A stretch of 22,670 nt of DNA, filler included, from an uncultured virus (IMG/VR IMGVR_UViG_2061766007_000649) (lineage: Duplodnaviria > Heunggongvirae > Uroviricota > Caudoviricetes > Crassvirales). It is 2 parts of one record of this genome, joined end to end, with 100 filler letters (N's around TTAATTAATTAA, not from the genome) between each part and the next. Parts side by side here need not be neighbours in the genome. Positions count along the whole stretch, not along the records: positions 1,283 to 22,670 come from IMGVR_UViG_2061766007_000649; 1 more part is not named here. One strand, given 5' to 3'. The notes under the pieces were generated by a model. The model was given only the letters and a program-made list of their open reading frames with translations, did not search any database and was not told the DNA's origin. Every line of letters begins with the position of its first letter. The stretch's first letter is position 1. A program made the translations under genes and the position numbers. Positions 1,356 through 13,117 of this stretch are shown here, piece by piece.

Positions 1356-1779
1356 TATTTACCTGTACTTCCAAATCCACCATCTCCTCTCTCTGTCTTA
1401 GCCAGTTCTTCAACTTCTAAGAACTCCACTTTTNNNNNNNNNNNNNNNNAACTCTATCTCCTACCTGATAAGGAGGTGTTGCAGGAATATCGTCTCTGTA
1501 CTTATACATCAACATCAACTCTCCAGTGTAATCACTATCTAGCACTCCAACATGATTAGCAAGATAATAGCTGGTTTTTCGGTTAGAACTTCTTGGGAAT
1601 ATAAGCATTACATAGCCTTCAGGGAGCTGGAATGACAGTCCTGTATGGTATACCCAGCAATCATTCTTTGCGTCATATTCTCTACTAGTAGCAGTCACAT
1701 CCATTCCTGCACTTCCAACAGTAGCATATGTAGGTATTACTGCTTTATCAGTTAGCTTTTTTATCTTTACTTCAATCAT
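1355..1779 (-). CDS. dut: Trimeric dUTPase
   Basis: AGMDV, PRSS and GVLDSDYTG motifs; after the gap the frame reads KVEFLEVEELAKTERGDGGFGSTGK* (motif 5). Confidence 0.96.
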
Positions 1780-3918
1780 TTAGACTTTCTTTTTTAGCAT
1801 AGAACCTAGTCTGAGCTTCCTTATATCTCTCCTTGTCAAAGTACTTGATAGGTCTTAAGAACCCAATAACCCTTGTCCACCAAGANNNNNNNNNNNNNNN
1901 NNNNNNNNNNNNNNNNNNNNNNNNNATAGGATGCTTAGTAATAAAATGACAGTCATCACATTCACTATTAGGAATATTAAATGTGAAGTATGATGTACCA
2001 TAGTGAATAGCAACATTAATTAGAGATAGATACTGTTCCTTACTAAGGTGCTCTTCAAGATTACAATGTAACCCTACTCCTCCATCCAGCAATTCTGTAA
2101 ACTCCTTACCATGAAGCTTGAATTTATCAAGTATAGTAGTCTTGGGGTCAGATGCAATATAGAAATAGGAGTTATAAAGATTTCTNNNNNNNNNNNNNNN
2201 NNNNNNNNNNNNNNNNNNNNNNNNNNNCCAACCATAGTTCTTACTGGACAGTCCTTCTGCAGGAACTAATTCAGTATTGAACTGAAAATCTTTAGTAGAA
2301 TGAAGTTTATTTTGCTCTGAGATAGTTCCTGTAATAAGCCTACAGAACTCTTTATACTCATCATTATAGTTGCATTTAATTCCCAAGAATTCAGCTGCTT
2401 CATTAAGACCATTAATACCAATAGTATTAAACAATTNNNNNNNNNNNNNNNNNNNNNNNNNNNNGCATCTTCAACTTCATAGAGTAAAGTTTTATAAGCA
2501 ATGTGATACTTATAAACCTTTTCAAGAATGCCTATAAGATACTCGTGTAGGTCTGCCCAAGAATTTCTAGCATCTTCTTGAGTCCAGTCTCCCCTGTTAG
2601 CATCCATCATCATCTTACTCCAATCCTGAATAATCCTGTTAAGATTAAGAGTAATCACATTGGCACTGCCAGTTTGAACTCCAGTAAGACCATTAGTAAA
2701 AGAGAAGACATTCTCTGCAATTTCATTTCTGAGTCTGCAGCAAGAGGCCAAAGCATTGGGATTATCAGAGATATAAGTAAAGAAGGAATGTCCTTTGCTA
2801 TACATTTCTGCAACAAAATCTTTCCATTCTGTATCCTTGATGTCTCCATCTTCACTAAGCAATGCAACTGTTTCAACAGGAAAGGTTAATAGAGTCTTAG
2901 TTCTCTCATTATTAAACCATTCCATAAAGTCATGCTGCAGCCAGTTAACTCTCTCCCATTTGGGCTGTGTACCATCAGGGAAATAGAAATCATCAAACAG
3001 CGCGTGCCAATAGTTCTCATCATAATAAGAAATATTGGTAAACGGCGACTGATAACTTCTATTACCTGCAGGCTGATTCCAACCATAGACAATCTGCTGA
3101 TAGGCTTGATGAATGGCATCAACTATCTTTCTCTTAGGAAGTTCTGATGCTTCAACTCTATAAGCCATCTCATGATAGAATGGCCCAAAATCTTTGACAC
3201 AGAAGTAATCCAAGAAATTGAAGAACTCTCCAAATGCTACGGCTCCCTTACATTGGGCAGAGAGAAGGAAGGTTANNNNNNNNNNNNNNNNNNNNNNNNN
3301 GAACTAAGATTCTTTGGGGCAACAGTTCCTAAACCATCCATTCCCTTTGTACCTTCTACAAGTAGGGGATATAGAGAAACTGCTTCACAATAATTCTTAA
3401 CTGCTGGGGAAGACGCTTCATCATGAGCATAGATAATGTGGTGTTCAAGGTCCTTTACATATTGGTCAGCAACTTCAGGGAATTGCTTCTCAAGTTGCTT
3501 AGTCATTCTATACCTTTGAATCTGTCTATTGATTGACTTGTATACCTCACCATCAATGTTTGCCACATTCTTGATTGCCACATTTGCATTGGCATCTGTT
3601 TCTGACGAAGTGGCAGCATTTTNNNNNNNNNNNNNNNNNNNNNNNNNNNNCTTTATGTTTCTCTCTATAAGAGTGATAGGCAAGGGCAGTATCCCATTCT
3701 CCTGCAGCAATTATACTTTTGACAACATCATCTTGAATATCCTCAATGTCAGTAATACTGTCATCTGAATGCTTCATTTCAACTGTGTCATGTACAATTT
3801 TCTGTACAAGTTCTGGTACTGCCTTACCCTGAGCATCGAATGCCTTTTTGACAGCGTTGTCAATCTTCTCCCAACTAAAGGGCTCTAAACTCCCATTTCT
3901 TTTTCTTACATTAATCAT
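1772..3918 (-). CDS. nrdD: Anaerobic (class III) ribonucleoside-triphosphate reductase with N-terminal ATP cone
   Basis: Merged from four ORF-track pieces: VRKRNG ATP cone, YCEAVSL, QSPFTNIS, SCCRLRN finger loop, CDDC, WTRVIGFLRP glycyl-radical loop. Confidence 0.93.
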
Positions 3919-5732: not shown

Positions 5733-6396
5733 TAGATTGCTTCTCCATTAAATTCAGTATACCACACAATCTCCTCATTGTATTGTCCTTTAAGATACTC
5801 ATTGACTTTCTTAAAAATCTCTGAGGGCATCCTTTGTCCTGTTCTGGCATAGTAGGCTGGGTGATTTTCTTTAAGTATATAATTGCCACNNNNNNNNNNN
5901 NNNTGTTTGTGCCTGTTTGCCAAACAGAACATAGACAATACCTGTTTGATAGTTTGAAAAAGACTCTAAGAAATTTGAAATAAAGGGCCTCCACATTGCT
6001 GTGTGAGACCCTATCTTATTTACTTCAACGGTTAGAGCAGAGTTAATCATTAAGATTCCCTGTTTAGCCCAGCTCTCTAAACTATTATCAAACTCTNNNN
6101 NNNNNNNTGTAGTCTATAGCAGCATCTTTAATGACTTGCAATGAAGGAGATAAATCTTCTGTATCTAATGCATTCCCAAATAAAATACCAGTAGCAACGC
6201 CTTTTTGAGGATATGGATCCTGCCCCAAAAACACAACTTTACAATCACTCATAGGACATAAAGTAAATGCTTNNNNNNNNNNNNNNNNNNNNNNNNNNNN
6301 NNNNCATATATTTTCTGGATTGATTTGATTTAACACCTTAAATAATATAGAAGTATCTATCACCTTCATCCAGTCATTAAAAACTTCTGCCATCAT
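5732..6396 (-). CDS. ung: Family 1 uracil-DNA glycosylase
   Basis: VVFLGQDPYP; manual middle piece WAKQGILMINSALTV...GSH...YVLFGKQAQ; C-terminal HPA. Confidence 0.92.
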
Positions 6397-7103
6397 ATTT
6401 TATTTGTTCTAAAACTTCTCCAATCCTAGCTTTTAGGACTGAATTGATGTCTTTGTTCACATTAGTCCCAGGAGTAGGCTTAGTGGGCTTTATAAACAAA
6501 TCAGCANNNNNNNNNNNNNNNNNNNNNNNNNNNNNNNNATTGTCCCCAACTCCCTACATCGTGAGTTAAATAATATGCAATTCCCTTTTTAAGAAGAGAT
6601 TTATTAAGAGAACTCACATCATCTGTAAAGACTGCAGGAGACACATGTACTGTTGTTTTAGAAGTAGCATTATTTGAGAAGTTCAGGGTCCTGGTAACAT
6701 ATATCAGTGGATTAAAGTCTTTATCAAGCACCACACCGTTACCGCCATAATATATTTCTCCTTTAGGAGTTACTACTTTGGTCAACCTTCCAAGCCTCTG
6801 AGTAAATGTCTTCATAATAGTGTCGGCCCCACTACATGTCTTGCTCCTATCTCCTAAAATCAATGGTACTACTATGGTAATAAACTGATTCTCTTCCATA
6901 TTCATACGGGGCTCACGCATGATACGAATTGTCTCATTATAGGCCATAATAGGAATATCTCCGCCCTCTCTAGTCACCTTGAATTTCATTTCTATGGGAG
7001 AGTCAGTCACATTTTGACTGTTTGCTCCAGAGAAATTATAGATGTTACTGTCAGGAGAAGAGAATCTACTCATAGTAGTACAGTAGTTATAACTAAAGTC
7101 CAT
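6377..7103 (-). CDS. Hypothetical protein translationally coupled to the ThiF/E1 gene
   Basis: ATG overlaps the ThiF stop (TAATG at 7101-7105); after the gap it reads ADLFIKPTKP...YDGRSF*. Confidence 0.75.
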
Positions 7104-8149
7104 TATGAAACTACTTTAAAGAACATAGTGTCTGCAGAATACTCAGTAAAGAATGGTAAATCCCTAGGAATTNNNNNNNNNNNNNNNNNNNNNNNNNNNN
7201 NNNNNNNNNNNNNNNNNNNNNNNNNNNNNNNNNNNNNNNNNNNNNNNNNNNNNNNNNNNNNNNNNNNNNNNNNNNNNNNNNNNNNNNNNNNNNNNNNNNN
7301 NNNNNNNNNNNNNNNNNNNNNNNNNNNNNNNNNNNNNNNNNNNNNNNNNNNNNNNNNNNNNNNNNNNNNNNNNNNNNNNNNNNNNNNNNNNNNNNNNNNN
7401 NNNNNNNNNNNNNNNNNNNNNNNNNNNNNNNNNNNNNNNNNNNNNNNNNNNNNNNNNNNNNNNNNNNNNNNNNNNNNNNNNNNNNNNNNNNNNNNNNNNN
7501 NNNNNNNNNNNNNNNNNNNNNNCCCTTTATACAGAGAACCTGAAAACTCTCAGCAGCAAGTCTGCCATCAATGAATAAACACTCCTTTCTCTGTTGTTCA
7601 GGAAGAGAGTGGACAAGGGCTTTCCAAGCATTAAAGAAATCCTTTCTTGCTACCATATTATCAAACCCACAAATCATTATTTTAGTGGCAGTAGAGNNNN
7701 NNNNNNCTAGAGTACTGTCCCGCCATTCTAACCATTGCATTAACTTTGGCACTCCCTATATCATCTGTTGAATATAACTGCCCAGACATATTTGCTGCCC
7801 CAACATTATCATCGTCATAGATATATAGAGCCTGAGGATGAAGCCTGGATAGCAGGAAAGTTACATAGCTTCCAATTCCGCCAACCCCAGCAAGAGTTAC
7901 CTGTTTGGCCTGAATATTAGTAAACCAAACAGCCCCGCTGAATCTACTGGTTTCTTCAGAAACTAAGATGCTCTGAGAGTTCACAGGAATCTCAGGATGT
8001 GCAGGCTCCGGTTCTTCACGAATAACAGATTCTTCAGCAGGAGTCTCAACCTCAGCAAAGGCATCTTCGCCCTTAGCATTCCTGTATTCCTCCATTGCTC
8101 TAGCAATGATGGCATCAATTTCACTAGCAATATTAGAGCTTGTCGACAT
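7103..8149 (-). CDS. ThiF/MoeB/E1-family adenylating enzyme
   Basis: SRFSGA, LAGVGGIGS (7871-7888), YDDDNV..NMSGQ, CGFDNMVARK, IDGRL; C-terminus IPRDLPFFTEYSADTMFFKVVS*. The region expected to hold a catalytic Cys is masked (7173-7522). Confidence 0.9.
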
Positions 8150-9222
8150 AAGATGCAAGTAATTCAATGTATTTATCTATATATTTATTCTTTACAGGCA
8201 AAGATTCAAGTTCTTTAGCAATATCAATAGATAACTGATCGGGGGCAACAGCATCCTCCTTAGTATCATCTATACTATACCAAGTTAAGAACTCAATGAA
8301 GTCAGTGGCCCAATATTCAAACAGGAGCATTCCATTCTCTCCTTTACCAAATCTGGCATCAAAGCGCTTCTCCATAGAATCAAGGGCTTTTTTCATATAT
8401 CCAGCATCTCCTTTAGTATAAGTAACATTACCAGTAACTAACTGAGAGACAATGCTATTCACTAGGTCAGTGGTATCAGGCCCTGACTTTGTGGCTTNNN
8501 NNNNNNNNNNNNNNNNNNNNNNNNNNNNNNNNNNNNNNNNNNNNNNNNNNNNNNNNNNNNNNNNTTAGTATTATCATCTTTATGAAGCTGATAGTCCTTT
8601 CCCCAATACTTTGATGTATAAGAATCTGGAGTATAAATGTTTGTAGTAGTCTTTACTGCTTCCTGCTTGGCTTTCTTAATCTCAGCCAGCCTGTCAGCAA
8701 CTTCTACAAAGGGATTCTCAGTAGGCTTTTCAAATTCAATATCAAGATTGAAGTATTCAATCTCTTCTCCTTCAATAGTCTCCTGATGCCCATCACTGAC
8801 AGTACCTCCAAATCCTTCATAAGAGAAACTCCTGACAGAAGTATATTTAATCTTCCTAGTAATTGCTGCTGTATACTTACCGGCATTATTTACAATAAGA
8901 GACACAAAATGGTTCCTCTCATTTCCTTCTTCTTGAAGCGTGGCTAAATCAGTACCACTAAAGAAAGTGCTCATGTTGTTATGAGAATGGATAAGTCCCA
9001 TCTTATAATCAAGAAGCTCAGGATGCTGAGCCATATAACTGATTACATCTGGAGACATATTAAACTCAGTATAAGTAGTGCTACCAATATCCATAGGAAG
9101 AATATCTTCACACCTGATTTCTAATGAGCCATCTTCAAAATTTCCTGAAGGAGTATAGAATAGAACTCCCGACCACTCGGTGTCCCACACTCTCTCGCAG
9201 AGGAAGCGGATTAACTTCTCAA
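8133..9222 (-). CDS. JAB/MPN+ (JAMM) metallopeptidase with C-terminal extension; start lies in gap 9223-9292
   Basis: EWSG followed by HSHNNMSTFFSGTD = HxH-x7-S-x2-D (8948-8989). The 8133-8462 ORF is open back to the gap and is probably the same protein. Confidence 0.88.
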
Positions 9223-9292
9223 NNNNNNNNNNNNNNNNNNNNNNNNNNNNNNNNNNNNNNNNNNNNNNNNNNNNNNNNNNNNNNNNNNNNNN

Positions 9293-10359
9293 AGAATCTT
9301 TGTGGCAATATAACCAGCAATTCTTTCATTTAAAATAGTAGTACTAGTGCTTGTTTCCTCCTCATCACGGGGAGCATCAGAGAAAGAAACACGAACATCT
9401 CTTCCTTTAAAAGTACAAATAAACTCTCCAGCAAACCTATCATAGTTTAGAAGACCTGAACTATNNNNNNNNNNNNNNNNNNNNNNNNNNNNNNNNNNNN
9501 NNNNNNNNNNNNNGTCTCTAAAAGTAGAGACCAAATTATGATGAGCAAACTCTTTATTATACCATTTAATGAAAGCGTTGCTTATAGAAATCAAAAAGTT
9601 TGTAGGAGACATTGCCAGTCTATATTTACCAGATACATAGGTAAATTTCAAAACATTATTGTCTACAACATACTTGATAAATTTAGCAATTTGAGGAAGA
9701 GTTACTACATCTCTTCCTAAATCGTAAGTGGTTAAAAAGGATTGATAATTGATCCTTGGAAATAGCCTATATAAAGAATTTCTCCTGTCTGTAAGCTGCT
9801 CTAATCTATGATACGGAGTTCCTGCAATAGATTCAACCTGTACAAATCTATCCAGTTCTAGACAGAACAACCTCCATAAATCCTCATCATAGCCATGAAT
9901 CAATGAACATATTGTATTATTGATAGGGCCACTTCCTGTACAAGGAGTTTGAAACTCTGTAAAATCATCAGTGGGAATACTACATACATGGCTATGCATA
10001 TAGTTATTTGTAAAATGCTGTACAGTATATTCTGCTCTGTTTAAGGAGAACTTATATTTTAGCTTTCCATCAATATCAATAGATACTTTGGCATAGAGAT
10101 GATTAACATAAGTAAACTTATCAAATTCATTTGTTACTTTTACATGGGGGAAATGTACCAATATAAATATATTTGGAGTATTTCTCCTTATGTATGCGTT
10201 GATGCCTTCCACATTTCTGCTACGAGCAGGAATATCAGGAAGAGCAGGAATCCCCTGTAAGTCTACTCTGTCTTCACCAAAGAACTCATTAAATATAGTG
10301 AGAATCTGTAACGGCTTCTCTATACTCTGATTATATACTTGCAGTAGTTCTTCCGTCAN
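9293..10359 (-). CDS. Putative prokaryotic E2 (UBC-fold) conjugating enzyme; stop lies in the gap
   Basis: Frame is open from (N)TG at 10359 (MTEELLQ...). YMHSHV...PCTGSGPI resembles the E2 HPN/HPH...C[L]G flap and catalytic Cys (Cys codon 9940-9942). It lies between the Ubl and JAB genes. Confidence 0.6.
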
Positions 10360-10376
10360 NNNNNNNNNNNNNNNNN

Positions 10377-10393
10377 TGGGTTATCCCCACCCC
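10377..10393 (-). terminator. GC-rich hairpin just downstream of the Ubl gene (3' arm and U-tract masked)
   Basis: Minus strand reads GGGGTGGG-GATAA-CCCA[N...], 12 nt after the Ubl stop. Confidence 0.4.
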
Positions 10394-10405
10394 TATATTA
10401 GTTTA

Positions 10406-11011
10406 TTAGTCAACAAACTCGAACATCTTGTCAATGTCCTCATCGCTGTAAGGACTCTTGACCTTGGGGGCCACATTGCCGTCAAGGATGGCACGAATCT
10501 CATCTGCATCCTCAGCGAAGAGAGTATCATCCTCCTCAAGAATATCAATGAGCTTACGGAGAGCCATCTCCACAGCAGGAGTAGCATTCTCAGCAGCAGC
10601 ACTCTGAGCCTCCTCAACAAGAGACATCAGCTCAGAATTCTTGCACTGAGTGAAATTCTTGCCATAGACAGAGATGCAAGCATCCTTAAGTCCAAGCTCC
10701 TCAACGGCGTCATAAAGAGCCTCACGAGCCTCAGAGAGATTGGCACCACTCTTAATCTTCTTGTTGGGAACAGTGAGCATAAACACCAGCTCATTAGTCA
10801 CAGCACCCTTATAGGGCACATCGTGAGGAAGAATAGAGTCATCAGTGAGAAGCTCAGTGTGGGAGAGCCCCTCATAGAAAGTCATGCCAGCATAGCCAAT
10901 CCCCTGAGCATCAAGGGCAGCCTTCAGCTCACGAAGAGTGGTGGCATCAGTGTTAACAACATACTTGTTCTGGTTCTGGGTAGAAACGATAGTAATATTC
11001 CTAGCTTCCAT
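10406..11011 (-). CDS. Putative ubiquitin-like (beta-grasp) protein precursor with C-terminal extension
   Basis: Residues 1-89 follow a beta-beta-alpha-beta-beta pattern (ITIVS, YVVNT, TTLRELKAAL, MTFYEG, LL.DDSILP, LVFML) ending in KKIKSG89, followed by a helical/acidic extension. First gene of the E2-JAB-E1 run. Confidence 0.65.
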   Translation of the reverse strand: MEARNITIVSTQNQNKYVVNTDATTLRELKAALDAQGIGYAGMTFYEGLSHTELLTDDSILPHDVPYKGAVTNELVFMLTVPNKKIKSGANLSEAREALYDAVEELGLKDACISVYGKNFTQCKNSELMSLVEEAQSAAAENATPAVEMALRKLIDILEEDDTLFAEDADEIRAILDGNVAPKVKSPYSDEDIDKMFEFVD

Positions 11012-12014
11012 AATTGTTAATATTAAAAAGGTTTAAAATGATTTGTTTAAATTTATCTTTGTCTTGAAGAGAGTGGTATAAATCTGAAACATCTTTTCCT
11101 TCCTCAAACTGTGGTAATACTATATTAGTGAATCCAGTCTGTTTACTTAATTTTTTACCGTCGATCAAGCCTGTAGCATCACAGTCAAACAGCACATAGA
11201 TATTTTTGTACCTTCGTTTTAATTCACTAATGGCAGTATTACTCATAGTATATCCTTCTCCCTGAGTAGCAATACAAGGGATACCAGTATTAGACCATAA
11301 ACATAATGCATCTTTTAGTGATGAACATATGCAAAGTCTGTCTCCAAATTCGGGAACTTTAGTCCACAGACTAATGACAGAACTATCGGTGCTAGTACAC
11401 CATTTAAAACCATTTTTATTGAATGGCTGATAAATCTTAATACTGATATTACCTTCCTTCCTCTCTATATATGCATAAGCATATTTATCTGCTCCAAATG
11501 TATACTTTTTACCATTCTTTATGATAAACTTGTGTGAGATTGGATAAACCTCGGCATACTTTAGCCAATCTATACTTATCCCATAGGATTCCCAATACTT
11601 TATATCATGTGGTTTCCAATCTCTGATTTTCACTTCTATCTTAGGATGTGTTTTCTTTGTAATCACAATCTGGGTGCTACCATTACTTACTCTAGTAGAT
11701 GTGCATTTTGTCCCAGAGCTAGCAGTGAAATCCTTGTATACTTTTTCAAGTACTTTACCATAAGGAAGGCGCCACAGTTGAGAGAGAAGATCAAATATTC
11801 CTCCCCTCTCCCCTGTAGCAAAATCTGTATAGTGCACTTTACTTCCATCAAAACTGTATATTCCAAATGATGGTTTCTTATCCTCTCTTAAAGGAGAGTT
11901 TATTACACAAGGAATCTCAGTTATATTTAGATACCGTGCAGCTATATTAGCCTCATTTACTTTTTCAAGTATATCTTCAAGACTAATGGATTCTCTTCCT
12001 TGACTAAAAGACAT
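11001..12014 (-). CDS. DNA primase (TOPRIM, DnaG-like, divergent)
   Basis: SPLREDKKPSF...DFATGERG (CHC2-like domain without Zn ligands), ICSSLKDAL, LFDCDATG (DxD), KDVSD. Confidence 0.85.
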   Translation of the reverse strand: MSFSQGRESISLEDILEKVNEANIAARYLNITEIPCVINSPLREDKKPSFGIYSFDGSKVHYTDFATGERGGIFDLLSQLWRLPYGKVLEKVYKDFTASSGTKCTSTRVSNGSTQIVITKKTHPKIEVKIRDWKPHDIKYWESYGISIDWLKYAEVYPISHKFIIKNGKKYTFGADKYAYAYIERKEGNISIKIYQPFNKNGFKWCTSTDSSVISLWTKVPEFGDRLCICSSLKDALCLWSNTGIPCIATQGEGYTMSNTAISELKRRYKNIYVLFDCDATGLIDGKKLSKQTGFTNIVLPQFEEGKDVSDLYHSLQDKDKFKQIILNLFNINNYGS

Positions 12015-12023
12015 TGTTATTTA

Positions 12024-12876
12024 CTAAAACCAGCCTTTGGGGGCCTCGGTTGCAGCGGGCATATCCTCCACAGGAGTGGCTNNNNNNNNNNNNNNNNNNN
12101 NNNNNNNNNNNNNNNNNNNNNNTCTTACGCTCCTTCACATCAGCATCAAGGCGGCTATAGTCAGAGGTGCCATTGCTGAGAACCTTCTGAGTATAAGCAG
12201 TCTGATACTGCTTGCCGTCATCGGTAGTACGCACACCAAAGAGAATCTTTACCTTATTGTTGGGCTGATAGGACATAATGTCCTTAATCTCCTTGAAGCT
12301 GCCATCAAAGAGTTTATCTGCCTCACCAAGACGGGCCTCACAATCGGCGGGATTGTCAACCATCACCCACTTACCATCAACATACCTCTGCACATTAGGA
12401 ATGGACAGATAGGTCTTGATGAAGTTAGTAAGGTCTTCCTCACCATTATAGACAGGACGATAGTCTGCATCAAGATTGGCAGGACCATTGGCATACTGAG
12501 GAATCTGATGATTCTTGGCTTCCTCTTCTGTAACCCAAGCAGTACGGCCATACTTATCAATTACCTGAATCTTGGTGTGGTCTTTATTAAAGCAATACTC
12601 CTTGCGGATAAAATAGGACACCTTAGTGGTCATATCAATGCCACCACACTTCTCAGCAACAGTCTTGACAATAAAGTCAATACGAGCATAAGGAACTTTC
12701 TTACCCTCAACATCCTGAGTACCAATATATTCAGGAGCCCTATCTAGAGTAGTGTTATAGATTTTCTCAAGCTCCTCTTTAGAAGGATTAACAGCTGCAA
12801 CAGTAACTGGAGCTACGCCAACATACCTCTTGACAACTCCGCCCTCAGTAGATTCCTTTCCAGCAGAAAAGGCCAT
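12024..12876 (-). CDS. Putative single-stranded DNA-binding protein
   Basis: True start MAFSAGKES at 12876; tail ATPVEDMPAATEAPKGWF* is acidic/Pro-rich and ends in aromatic residues; lies between the AAA ATPase and primase; biased codon usage. Confidence 0.55.
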
Positions 12877-12914
12877 ANNNNNNNNNNNNNNNNNNNNNNN
12901 NNNNNNNNNNNNNN

Positions 12915-13117
12915 TGAATAGCCTCGGTTTCTTCATTAACCTCGGGAAGATTGCCCTTATAAGCAAGGCACTGCTCAGAAGTAAACCCACGAGTCATAAC
13001 CTTAATGGGAGTCTCCCAAGCATCAATCTGATTGTTGATGTTAATCAACTCTGCAGCAAGGTCACGCATCTTAGCATTTACTTTCTCACGCTGAGCGCAG
13101 AGTTTCTTTGTGTTCTG
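12915..13117 (-). CDS. Hypothetical coiled-coil protein (both ends masked)
   Basis: Open frame QNTKKLCAQREKVNAKMRDLAAELININNQIDAWETPIKVMTRGFTSEQCL... Confidence 0.6.

Follow-up and report, generated by a model that had tools for sequence, protein, structure and literature searches.

The antiphage Bil operons comprise four separate genes in the order BilA (ubiquitin-like protein, Ubl), BilB (E2), BilC (JAB) and BilD (E1), with no E3, a BilB-type E2 that is thought to choose the targets, and an expected Cys-based chemistry (PMC11601596). The Bub operons (6E / DUF6527) are described in the same source as encoding a Ubl fusion precursor that is freed by the JAB of the operon, the BubAB Ubl-E2 fusion being cut after a conserved Gly, and as relying on enzymes without a catalytic Cys that form Tyr/Ser oxyesters (PMC11601596). 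The PRTRC cassette (NCBIfam TIGR03734-03742; class 6d) brings together Ubl, JAB and proteins resembling E1 and E2 on mobile DNA (Iyer et al., 2006, PMC1779556). A phage-borne pairing of Ubl and JAB named in that survey is TAPI/TAPK of lambda-type tail assembly, where TAPI, whose C-terminal domain follows a glycine-rich junction, is likewise predicted to be cut by the JAB (PMC1779556). In type II CBASS (Cap2/Cap3), E1 and E2 chemistry is accompanied by a JAB, and a minimal E1, UBA5, is found in the UBA5/UFM1/UFC1 system.

In the window (the whole stretch of DNA analyzed, 22,670 nucleotides, from a gut crAss-like phage), four adjacent co-oriented genes on the minus strand lie between primase and uracil-DNA glycosylase, among DNA-replication genes. 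They encode a 201-aa protein, a protein of ~380 aa, a JAB/JAMM peptidase and a ThiF-type E1, and are surrounded by genes of nucleotide metabolism, namely the glycosylase, a dUTPase and an anaerobic ribonucleotide reductase. This arrangement and a set of named motifs were part of the original prediction, and all of these motifs were found in the open reading frames and translated sequences. Since they are invariant across alignments of 16–44 relatives, the motifs go beyond chance. The window contains 42 runs of N, six of which fall within the cassette, where they mask the start and stop codons of the E2, the start of the JAB and about a third of the E1. The lengths of these runs are not faithful: 10 N in the E1 stand for ~15 codons in the relative L005, and 49 N in the E2 for ~23 codons in the close relatives P0121 and P0122. 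Therefore, frame changes across the N-runs are not readable as frameshifts.

A synteny survey confirmed the expected co-occurrence in related phages: of 83 related loci, 80 had all four genes (Ubl in 83, E2 in 83, JAB in 82 and E1 in 80), among them that of the cultured phage crAss001. Flavobacterium phage FpV4 also carries the four genes, which are still together there with the glycosylase relocated. A fifth conserved gene, fast-evolving and encoding 200 aa with no assigned function (6501–7103, minus strand), separates the E1 from the glycosylase. It is translationally coupled to the E1, whose stop codon shares bases with the ATG of this gene (TAATG), and it was found downstream of the E1 in 77 of the 83 loci. 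Its relatives are merely 20–37% identical to one another, family searches returned no match, and FpV4 has no counterpart after its E1. This gene is possibly an accessory or a target of the cassette.

The first gene of the cassette (10406–11011, minus strand) has 4028 homologues and was characterized from its open reading frame, alignments, an AF2 model and fold searches. The 201-aa product consists of a ubiquitin-like beta-grasp domain, Ser88-Gly89, a disordered linker, a helical C-terminal domain and an acidic-aromatic tail. A beta-grasp fold had been anticipated for this protein and is borne out by the model (mean pLDDT 75.9), with strands at residues 4–10, 16–21, 44–47, 65–67, 70–72 and 75–80 and a helix at residues 26–35. 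VIA aligned the model to a ubiquitin-like protein with Z 9.3 (rmsd 2.1 Å over 72 residues) and to ubiquitin with Z 8.2, and the best 50 matches all span model residues ~1–85. Ubiquitin, SUMO and ISG15 also dominate the Foldseek matches with a probability of ~1.0, yet with E-values of just 2.7e-3 and weaker. The Ubl domain proper comprises residues 1–89 (10745–11011, minus strand) and ends in K-I-K-S-G89 (the sequence reads ...NKKIKSG89), the predicted site of processing and activation. K84, S88 and G89 do not vary across 24 diverse sequences, the Ser-Gly is retained in FpV4 and Dulem virus 41, and the segment after the fold end has a pLDDT below 50 (residues 84–90). As Gly89 is internal and is followed in the model by the linker and the helical domain, the 201-aa protein is predicted to be a precursor rather than a free Ubl. 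Residues 1–100 are its most conserved part, nearly invariant among relatives of 65–93% overall identity, while the linker beyond the Ser-Gly varies in length. The C-terminal half is also conserved, with a G-K-N-F-T-x-C-K motif and the tail S-P-Y-S-D-D-E-I-D-x-M-F, which we take to resemble the partner-docking tails of single-strand-binding proteins.

The E2-like gene (9223–10359, minus strand) starts and ends within N-runs, and the limits 9293 and 10359 first given for it turned out to be the edges of such runs. According to the open reading frame, relatives and model, its product combines an N-terminal UBC-like region of ~180 aa with a C-terminal alpha/beta region of ~200 aa without a recognized fold; a full-length relative (P0121, 88% identical) has 384 aa. 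The sequence reads ...YMHSHVCSIPTDDFTEFQTPCTGSGP..., and Y-M-H-S-H and P-C-T-G are invariant in the UBC-like domain. The candidate catalytic Cys is encoded by TGT at 9940–9942 (minus strand), as had been predicted, and corresponds to C140 in P0121 numbering. This Cys and the His-x-His are invariant in alignments of 44 and 27 sequences, are retained even at 22–25% identity, and are kept at the aligned positions of FpV4 gp52 and Dulem virus 41. A second invariant Cys (C166) is absent from the latter two proteins, so that a zinc site with four ligands at the HxH/Cys is disfavored. The spacing between HxH and Cys is 15 residues, presumably longer than in classical E2s.

The model of the E2-like protein has a pLDDT of 84.8 and is confident in the N-terminal ~180 residues, where a helix, four strands, a loop with the HxH and Cys, and further helices follow each other in the secondary-structure order of a UBC domain. 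Approximately 36–38 of the best 50 VIA matches are E2, UEV or RWD structures with Z 4.5–5.9, including bacterial BubB (Z 4.8) and the E2 domain of Cap2 (Z 4.7), and a second VIA search agrees; UFC1 is among the weak matches (Z 3.2–3.9). These values lie below the Z of 7–8 that unmatched models typically reach as stated by the tool, and a UBC fold is suggested by the kinds of structures that are matched rather than by how well they score. No E2 family match was found for the protein in Pfam, NCBIfam, PADLOC or PDB sequences, and Foldseek returned no match for the model at E ≤ 1e-3. The proposed E2 is a weaker call than the E1 and the JAB. The E2-like family is found almost exclusively in phage DNA: a search of 185,579 species genomes turned up just two loci, each on a contig of a metagenome bin (94 kb in one case).

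The identities of the JAB and the E1, which had been regarded as secure from the outset, were corroborated. The JAB gene (8133–9292, minus strand; start in an N-run), delimited by open reading frame, Pfam and relatives, encodes an MPN+ domain and a C-terminal domain of ~130 aa. It thus exceeds the JAMM domain, the open reading frame 8133–8462 being its C-terminal domain, and full-length relatives of 380–419 aa share this domain. The JAMM motif H-S-H-x7-S-x2-D (8948–8989, minus strand) is complete, with the E(WSG) upstream, and 16 sequences agree without exception at H103, S104, H105, S113, D116 and, upstream, E40; in a profile comparison, the alignment to archaeal JAMM1 (E 7e-4) extends across the motif. 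In the window, the JAB probably starts before the E2 gene has ended; the corresponding overlap amounts to 53 nt in locus L003 and 62 nt in crAss001. The E1 gene (7103–8152, minus strand; ~360 nt masked) encodes an acidic N-terminal region and a single adenylation domain with the motifs GVGGIGS, YDDDNVGAANMSGQ and FDNMVAR. Pfam ThiF scores 39.4 bits for the window fragment and 61.4 bits for a full-length relative (cut-off 28.1), and the best solved relatives in a profile search are UBA5 (E 9e-11), MccB, PaaA, TcdA, UBA6 and Cap2. GxGGIGS, D156, D158, N164, D218-N-M-x-A-R223 and C289-S-Y-K-Q-T are invariant in 18 sequences, and the Cys is retained in FpV4 at 38% identity.

The cassette shares with Bil the four separate genes, their order, the lack of an E3, an E2 that would itself choose the targets and the expectation of Cys-based chemistry. 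However, its E1 is a single short adenylation domain, whereas the Bil E1, compared here by description, has tandem inactive and active domains and a Cys domain; furthermore, the phage Ubl comes as a precursor that carries a large C-terminal domain, the E2-like protein has an extra domain of ~200 aa, and the genes reside in the replication module of a lytic-type phage rather than in a bacterial defense island. The putative release of the Ubl after a conserved Gly recalls Bub, as does the match to BubB, but the C-terminal partner of the phage Ubl is not an E2, JAB and E1 are separate genes, and an invariant Cys is retained in both the E1 and the E2-like protein. The scanned cassette proteins included no DUF6527 protease. 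PRTRC, which the original prediction had named as a model, fails as a family: ThiF scores 34.9 bits against a cut-off of 144.75 and protein A 11.6 against 101.8, the B and C models have no match in the cassette, hhalign to proteins adjoining two PRTRC ThiF genes gives probabilities below 1%, and no ParB-related gene was found in the window open reading frames scanned. Cap2 matches both the E1 profile and the E2-like model, yet it fuses E2 to E1 and acts by conjugating a cyclase, without a Ubl, and the phage cassette has no cyclase or effector. The TAPI/TAPK neighborhood, as described, contains neither E1 nor E2 and belongs to a tail module with an unrelated role (PMC1779556). The similarity to UBA5 is limited to the Rossmann part of the E1, with no sequence link for Ubl or E2. 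The cassette, which does not pass the PRTRC models and is unlike Bil, Bub and CBASS in the ways given above, is interpreted here as a viral lineage of its own among putative ubiquitin-like conjugation systems.

A protein-tagging pathway is a fairly probable explanation of the cassette. The 201-aa protein, whose codon bias is that of an abundant protein, would be cut by the JAB directly after Ser88-Gly89. The products would be an 89-residue Ubl ending in a free glycine and, as a second protein, the acidic helical part. The E1 would adenylate the terminal glycine and probably load the Ubl onto its own invariant Cys (C-S-Y-K-Q-T), from which it would move to the invariant Cys in the UBC-like N-domain of the E2-like protein, both as thioesters. 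No target or E3 was identifiable for the cassette; the large C-terminal domain of the E2-like protein may pick targets directly, without an E3, among phage replisome or host proteins, and the JAB may also reverse the tagging.

ThiS/ThiF, MoaD/MoeB, CysO/Mec and QbsCDE are models for a different, sulfur-carrying chemistry, in which the JAB would trim the Ubl, the E1 would adenylate it and load sulfur, and the 'E2-like' protein would be the enzyme that modifies a phage nucleotide, tRNA or DNA. The minimal, single-domain E1 is as in sulfur-carrier E1s, its best NCBIfam rows are ThiF models (far below their cut-offs), MoaD is among the Ubl fold matches (Z 7.0), and the neighboring nucleotide-metabolism genes would suit such a role, as would the Ubl, JAB and E1 triads known from sulfur pathways (Iyer et al., 2006, PMC1779556). 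We nevertheless consider this unlikely: the top Ubl matches are ubiquitin-type and not ThiS/MoaD, the UBC-like protein, with its invariant Cys, is never missing, the Ubl codon bias does not fit a catalytic carrier, and, in line with the original prediction, no thiamine, molybdopterin or thiouridylase genes, nor rhodanese or cysteine desulfurase genes, were found in the 27 other window open reading frames or in the 10 proteins scanned. Marginally less doubtful, though still improbable, is that the 201-aa protein is an uncleaved, unconjugated replisome or scaffold protein with a chance ubiquitin-like domain, and that the three enzymes act elsewhere, e.g., by adenylating a peptide or nucleic-acid group as MccB, PaaA and TcdA do. 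The internal position of Gly89, the conserved C-terminal half, the many non-conjugated Ubl domains among the fold matches and the proximity of these three enzymes, which perform other chemistry, to UBA5 in the E1 profile scores are consistent with this. However, the Ubl domain is by far the best-conserved part of the protein, an invariant Ser-Gly marks the fold end ahead of a linker of variable length, and the gene remains tightly linked to E2-JAB-E1 even where neighbors are rearranged.

Counter-defense against host Bil or type II CBASS, with the JAB removing host tags, a decoy Ubl absorbing host enzymes, or defense proteins being tagged and disabled, appears the most doubtful of these proposals. 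This proposal is about biological role and would not conflict with the tagging chemistry outlined above. The essentially phage-only distribution of the E2-like family and its structural likeness to Cap2 and BubB E2 domains would fit, and the gene order equals that of Bil operons, which are described as tagging phage tail proteins (PMC11601596). Against it, the cassette lies in the replication module, is universal in this group of phages and shows high sequence conservation, and nothing ties it to any particular host system. Counter-defense genes are usually variable and accessory.

The claim of a phage-borne tagging pathway is supported as an interpretation by a beta-grasp protein, a UBC-like candidate with a conserved Cys and co-occurrence of the genes in related phages, with conjugation itself as the predicted activity. 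Steigviridae-type crAss-like phages would be likely to encode a ubiquitin-like protein conjugation system of their own within the replication module, and, as the cassette is common to cultured relatives, this proposal is experimentally testable.

All long ORFs of the window lie on the minus strand, and the motifs named in the original prediction were found in the four cassette genes: K-S-G89 in the 201-aa protein encoded at 10406-11011, HSH...PCTG in the E2 candidate (Cys codon at 9940-9942), E...HSH-x7-S-x2-D in the JAB gene, and GVGGIGS, D-D-D-N-V...N-M-S-G-Q and D-N-M-V-A-R in the E1 gene. The gene limits needed correction. Those assigned to the E2 are the edges of N-runs and not gene ends, and the JAB gene is longer than had been proposed, reaching 8133 and including a C-terminal domain. 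This domain seems to be a separate ORF because an N-run intervenes; in relatives, JAB is a single protein of 380-419 aa. Since the window carries N-runs (42 in total, six of them within the cassette), unmasked relatives were used for full-length proteins, namely P0121, a 384-aa E2-like protein that is 88% identical to the E2 candidate, and the IMG/VR locus L003. The N-runs at 7697-7706, 8498-8564 and 9465-9513 are shorter than the counterpart stretches in relatives, and the reading frames differ on either side. As N-runs are not length-preserving, frame changes across them mean nothing and inferring frames from them is unsafe. Alternative genetic codes (TAG read as Gln, table 4) gave no meaningful lengthening of the cassette ORFs, whose fragmentation is due to the N-runs. 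A megablast search against phage records returned no near-identical record for the region. The gene for an NrdD-like anaerobic ribonucleotide reductase at 1772-3918 appears as four separate ORF pieces, for which internal N-runs are the simplest explanation.

According to PHROG matches, the cassette is located inside a replication and nucleotide-metabolism module that contains helicases, a DnaB-like helicase, a Sak4-like protein, a primase, a uracil-DNA glycosylase, a resolvase, an exonuclease, the anaerobic ribonucleotide reductase, a dUTPase and a DNA polymerase. The proposed placement between primase and glycosylase agrees with this position in the module, but a fifth gene (6501-7103) lies between E1 and the glycosylase. 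This gene encodes 200 aa, is translationally coupled to E1 through a TAATG overlap, and its products share 20-37% identity among relatives. It gave no family match and sub-threshold rows only in the protein atlas, and no counterpart was found in the Flavobacterium phage FpV4 (hhalign probability 1.6%). Its product may serve as a target or adaptor, or may have no connection with the cassette. The region upstream of the primase (12004-12990) encodes a conserved ~300-aa protein, which is the counterpart of gp81 of the cultured crAss-like phage crAss001 and had no Pfam or PHROG match; its homologue in L003 carries an acidic stretch followed by G-W-F at the end.

The conservation of this arrangement was surveyed in 83 loci, comprising 81 IMG/VR loci fetched via the E2 together with crAss001 and bajarodcaudo virus 1, which were queried with eight L003 proteins. 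In the IMG/VR search, the single E2 sequence retrieved 2 loci, while the alignment query retrieved 172 relatives, 80 of which were kept. Ubl matched in all 83 loci, as did E2 by construction, while JAB was matched in 82 and E1 in 80; the gene after E1 was matched in 77, the glycosylase in 73, the primase in 79 and the conserved protein upstream of the primase in 78. All matches were found on one strand and in one order, and the JAB and E1 misses fell in short or truncated loci (L016, L055 and L079). In crAss001, the four cassette proteins are gp79, gp78, gp77 and gp76, with gp79 as the Ubl precursor and gp77 as the JAB. The expected co-occurrence of the four genes in related phages is therefore borne out by this survey. 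A few relatives carry an extra 1-3 kb of DNA (L057, ~6260-7559; L062, ~6549-9951; L010, ~8291-9448) that interrupts or trails the JAB gene or splits E1 from the next gene, and which may represent mobile insertions, e.g., homing-endonuclease or intron-like elements.

Beyond these loci, a tblastn search with the E2 candidate matched 45 of 50,697 phage records, including crAss001 (classified as Crassvirales, Steigviridae), DAC15/DAC17 and uncultured crAss-like 'cr...' entries, with identities below 60% throughout. The E1 core was found in 87 phage records, 29 of which are Flavobacterium phages. The gene order in FpV4 is primase, glycosylase, Ubl, E2, JAB, E1, and its cassette proteins were aligned by hhalign with probabilities of 97.7% (Ubl), 96.9% (E2), 99.8% (JAB) and about 100% (E1). 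Since the FpV4 order differs outside the cassette, the linkage of the four genes outlasts rearrangement of their neighbours. In 185,579 species genomes, the E2-like protein was detected at two loci, both on metagenome-bin contigs, one of them 94,451 nt long. The bins of these loci (L089 and L090) are labelled Bacilli and Acholeplasmatales, and a length of 94,451 nt is close to that of a complete crAss-like genome; both are probably phage contigs that were binned with unrelated bacteria. When 1.84 billion representatives were searched with a profile of the E2 N-terminal domain, at least 2387 clusters (50% identity) matched at E ≤ 1e-3. Together with the two genome loci, which come from a pattern-based scan, this number indicates that the E2-like family is large and essentially viral. 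The 150 matches listed, with scores of at least 210 bits, were all orthologue-like, so that no bridge to known E2 families was seen among them.

The Ubl candidate has 4028 homologues at E ≤ 1e-3, and among the 120 listed none carried a Pfam domain or a name beyond 'hypothetical protein'. Across 39 sequences with 65-93% overall identity, hardly any variation is seen in the first 100 residues. AF2 modelled (mean pLDDT 75.9) a beta-beta-alpha-beta...beta domain at residues 4-80, a low-confidence stretch (pLDDT below 50) at residues 84-90 and, after it, five or six helices. Foldseek returned no row at E ≤ 1e-3, but its list consisted mostly of ubiquitin, SUMO, ISG15 and Ubl domains with probabilities of 0.98-1.00. 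VIA, which is independent of Foldseek, aligned 72 of 75 residues with a ubiquitin-like protein (Z 9.3, rmsd 2.1 Å) and gave a Z of 8.2 for ubiquitin itself; the top matches had rmsd values of 2.1-2.5 Å over about 70 residues, and the best 50 rows all covered model residues ~1-85. The proposal that 10406-11011 encodes a beta-grasp protein is thus upheld by the AF2 model, the Foldseek list and VIA, and the ubiquitin-size fold can be regarded as solid. A set of 24 diverse sequences shows no variation at K84, S88 and G89, the alignment gaps start directly past Gly89, and Ser-Gly is retained in FpV4 (K-Q-V-K-S-G-G) and in the distant relative Dulem virus 41. Based on the fold, the tail and the conservation of the Gly, we therefore describe the protein as a ubiquitin-like domain with a flexible, Gly-ended tail fused to a second domain. 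Gly89 is invariant yet internal and, by analogy with BubAB, a free C-terminal Gly would need cleavage by the JAB; the obvious reading is that the JAB would cut the precursor at this residue. Cleavage at the Gly of the BubAB fusion by its JAB is demonstrated in PMC11601596, and the same JAB cleavage is predicted for phage TAPI in PMC1779556.

The precursor gene (10409-11011) has a GC3 of 0.51, compared with 0.44 for the gene upstream of the primase (12007-12879) and 0.26-0.35 for the neighbours. This raised GC3 resembles the codon bias typical of genes expressed at very high levels and would fit a stoichiometric tag better than an enzyme. The C-terminal half of the precursor (10409-10744) contains a conserved G-K-N-F-T-x-C-K motif, a Pro/Ala/Lys-rich linker of variable length and a conserved terminus, S-P-Y-S-D-(D/E)-E-I-D-x-M-F; in locus L078 this half is longer by ~110 aa. 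The tail resembles the acidic tails through which single-strand-binding proteins dock to their partners.

Pfam ThiF (PF00899) matched the E1 fragment of the window with 39.4 bits (cut-off 28.1) and the full-length E1 of L003 with 61.4 bits over profile positions 11-205 of 238. A profile of 18 E1 sequences matched 50 solved chains at E ≤ 1e-3, with UBA5 at the top (9.3e-11), followed by MccB, PaaA, TcdA, UBA6 and Cap2. GxGGIGS, D156, D158, N164, D218-N-M-x-A-R223 and C289 in C-S-Y-K-Q-T are invariant in these 18 sequences, and the Cys, Lys, Gln and Thr of the latter motif are retained in FpV4 at 38% identity. These residues comprise the nucleotide-binding Gly motif, the catalytic Asp and Arg, and a Cys past the crossover region, which is presumably catalytic. 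The JAB scored just under the Pfam Prok-JAB cut-off of 25 (21.1 bits for the window, 18.9 bits for L003). Its JAMM motif, E...HxH-x7-S-x2-D, is present in the window with residues that are invariant across 16 sequences, and the JAB profile aligned with archaeal JAMM1 through the motif (E 7e-4).

The E2-like protein had no match to a curated E2 family (UQ_con, Prok-E2) for the window protein, L003 or any of 44 alignment members scanned at E ≤ 10, and no supporting match in Pfam, NCBIfam, PADLOC or PDB sequences. Sequence matches of the Ubl and E2 profiles to solved structures were at chance level (E ≥ 0.14), and the protein atlas gave no usable match for the E2 N-terminal domain. In the AF2 model of P0121 (mean pLDDT 84.8; mostly 81-97 in the N-terminal 170 residues), N-terminal helices are followed by strands at 32-35, 64-76, 82-94 and 105-111, by a loop at 118-144 carrying H122, H124 and C140, and by helices at 145-155 and 159-174; in this model, the order of elements is that of the UBC fold. 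Foldseek returned nothing at E ≤ 1e-3. A VIA comparison with 48,161 chains gave a best Z of 5.9, and about 36-38 of the best 50 rows were E2, UEV or RWD domains, judged mostly by their titles. Among these rows were bacterial BubB (9eav_D; 115 residues at Z 4.8) and the Cap2 E2 domain (7to3_A, 7-153; Z 4.7), and re-alignment of the top 1000 Foldseek rows placed E2s at Z 3.5-5.2, in agreement with the VIA list. Since a Z below 8 may reflect a common arrangement, as the tool itself warns, the UBC fold of the N-terminal domain is treated here as probable and not as established. The E2 assignment of the original prediction is thus favoured by the order of elements, the make-up of the hit list and the conserved HxH and Cys, while the best Z of 5.9 and the lack of an E2 sequence-family match count against it.

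Conservation lends independent support to the assignment: neither H-S-H nor the Cys varies in E2-like alignments of 44 and of 27 sequences, and both are kept in FpV4 gp52 (25% identity) and Dulem virus 41 (22%). Reading H122, H124, C140 and C166 as a four-ligand zinc site is less likely, as C166, the other invariant Cys of the family, is not kept in FpV4 and Dulem virus 41; its loss in distant relatives that keep HxH and C140 argues for an active site over a His2Cys2 zinc site. In the model, the HxH/C140 loop is a candidate match to the E2 active site. The C-terminal ~200 residues (~200-384 in P0121, ~9223-9760 in the window) gave weak, scattered structural matches only, e.g., to a TnsB transposase subdomain with a Z of about 4. 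Bil E2s are presumed to choose their own targets (PMC11601596), and by analogy this domain may be the target-recognition part.

When compared with known prokaryotic systems, the cassette shares some features with each of several but coincides with none of them. With the NCBIfam models for PRTRC proteins A, B, C and ThiF, the cassette scored below the cut-offs by wide margins, and E2 profiles aligned by hhalign with three proteins beside PRTRC ThiF genes on two plasmids gave probabilities below 1%, a comparison of low sensitivity because single sequences were compared. As described in PMC11601596, Bil likewise has four separate genes arranged Ubl-E2-JAB-E1 and no E3, but its E1 consists of three parts, whereas the cassette E1 is a single ThiF domain with a core of ~230-250 aa (228 aa in all in FpV4). 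The same text describes for Bub (6E) a similar precursor logic but also Ubl-E2 and JAB-E1 fusions, oxyesters, an E1 and E2 without catalytic Cys and a DUF6527 protease, in contrast to the cassette with its separate genes, conservation of both Cys and no DUF6527 match. Type II CBASS, with an E2-E1 fusion and no Ubl, is also unlike the cassette. The sulfur-carrier pathways (ThiS/ThiF, MoaD/MoeB) resemble it in their minimal E1 and JAB trimming. However, no thiamine or molybdopterin genes and no sulfurtransferase were found among the 27 other window ORFs and 10 scanned proteins, as had been noted for the thiamine and molybdopterin genes from the start, whereas the ThiF of an Aureibacter plasmid adjoins a true thiamine operon. 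Owing to the mismatches with PRTRC, Bil, Bub, CBASS and the sulfur pathways, we file the cassette as a distinct virus-borne lineage among prokaryotic Ubl-E2-JAB-E1 systems.

The anatomy of the cassette is real and conserved, and the proposed catalytic residues are all conserved; the chemistry we infer. On balance, we lean towards a working conjugation pathway with a JAB-processed precursor. The remaining weight is shared by a sulfur-carrier pathway, by a Ubl-domain protein that is not conjugated, and by a role in counter-defence, which is compatible with conjugation; these readings overlap in part with the favoured one. Going beyond a working conjugation pathway, we tentatively propose, as a scenario that we hold with less confidence, that one of the most abundant human-gut virus groups runs its own Ubl conjugation as an integral component of its genome replication. 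In this scenario, the tag would be made as a fusion precursor, as is eukaryotic ubiquitin, with an acidic, replisome-docking protein as its other half; it would be activated by a minimal E1 and attached to replisome or host proteins by an E2 with built-in target recognition, in a lineage independent of the known bacterial defence systems.

The literature searched yielded no account of the cassette for crAss-like or FpV4-type phages; a passing mention elsewhere may exist. The terms 'ThiF', 'ubiquitin' and 'JAB' do not occur in PMC7886860 (crAss genomics) or PMC10136315 (Crassvirales review), nor do phrases for a phage-borne system in PMC10557695 (Bil preprint). In databases, the cassette genes are labelled 'thiamine biosynthesis protein', 'metalloprotease domain containing protein', 'E1 enzyme family protein' or 'hypothetical protein', of which all but the E1 label are probably misleading. 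To our knowledge, bacterial Ubl conjugation has so far been characterised in anti-phage host systems (CBASS type II, Bil and probably Bub). With this cassette, machinery of a similar kind is seen in phages, as a fixed component of the replication module in an entire family of crAss-like phages. Its presence in cultured phages, i.e., crAss001 and DAC15 of Bacteroides and FpV4 of Flavobacterium, opens it to biochemical work and possibly to genetics. If the mechanism holds, it would reveal the use of protein tagging by a virus of bacteria, a way of processing precursors that is akin to eukaryotic ubiquitin fusions, and an E2 family of at least 2387 clusters at 50% identity without a detectable sequence link to known E2s.
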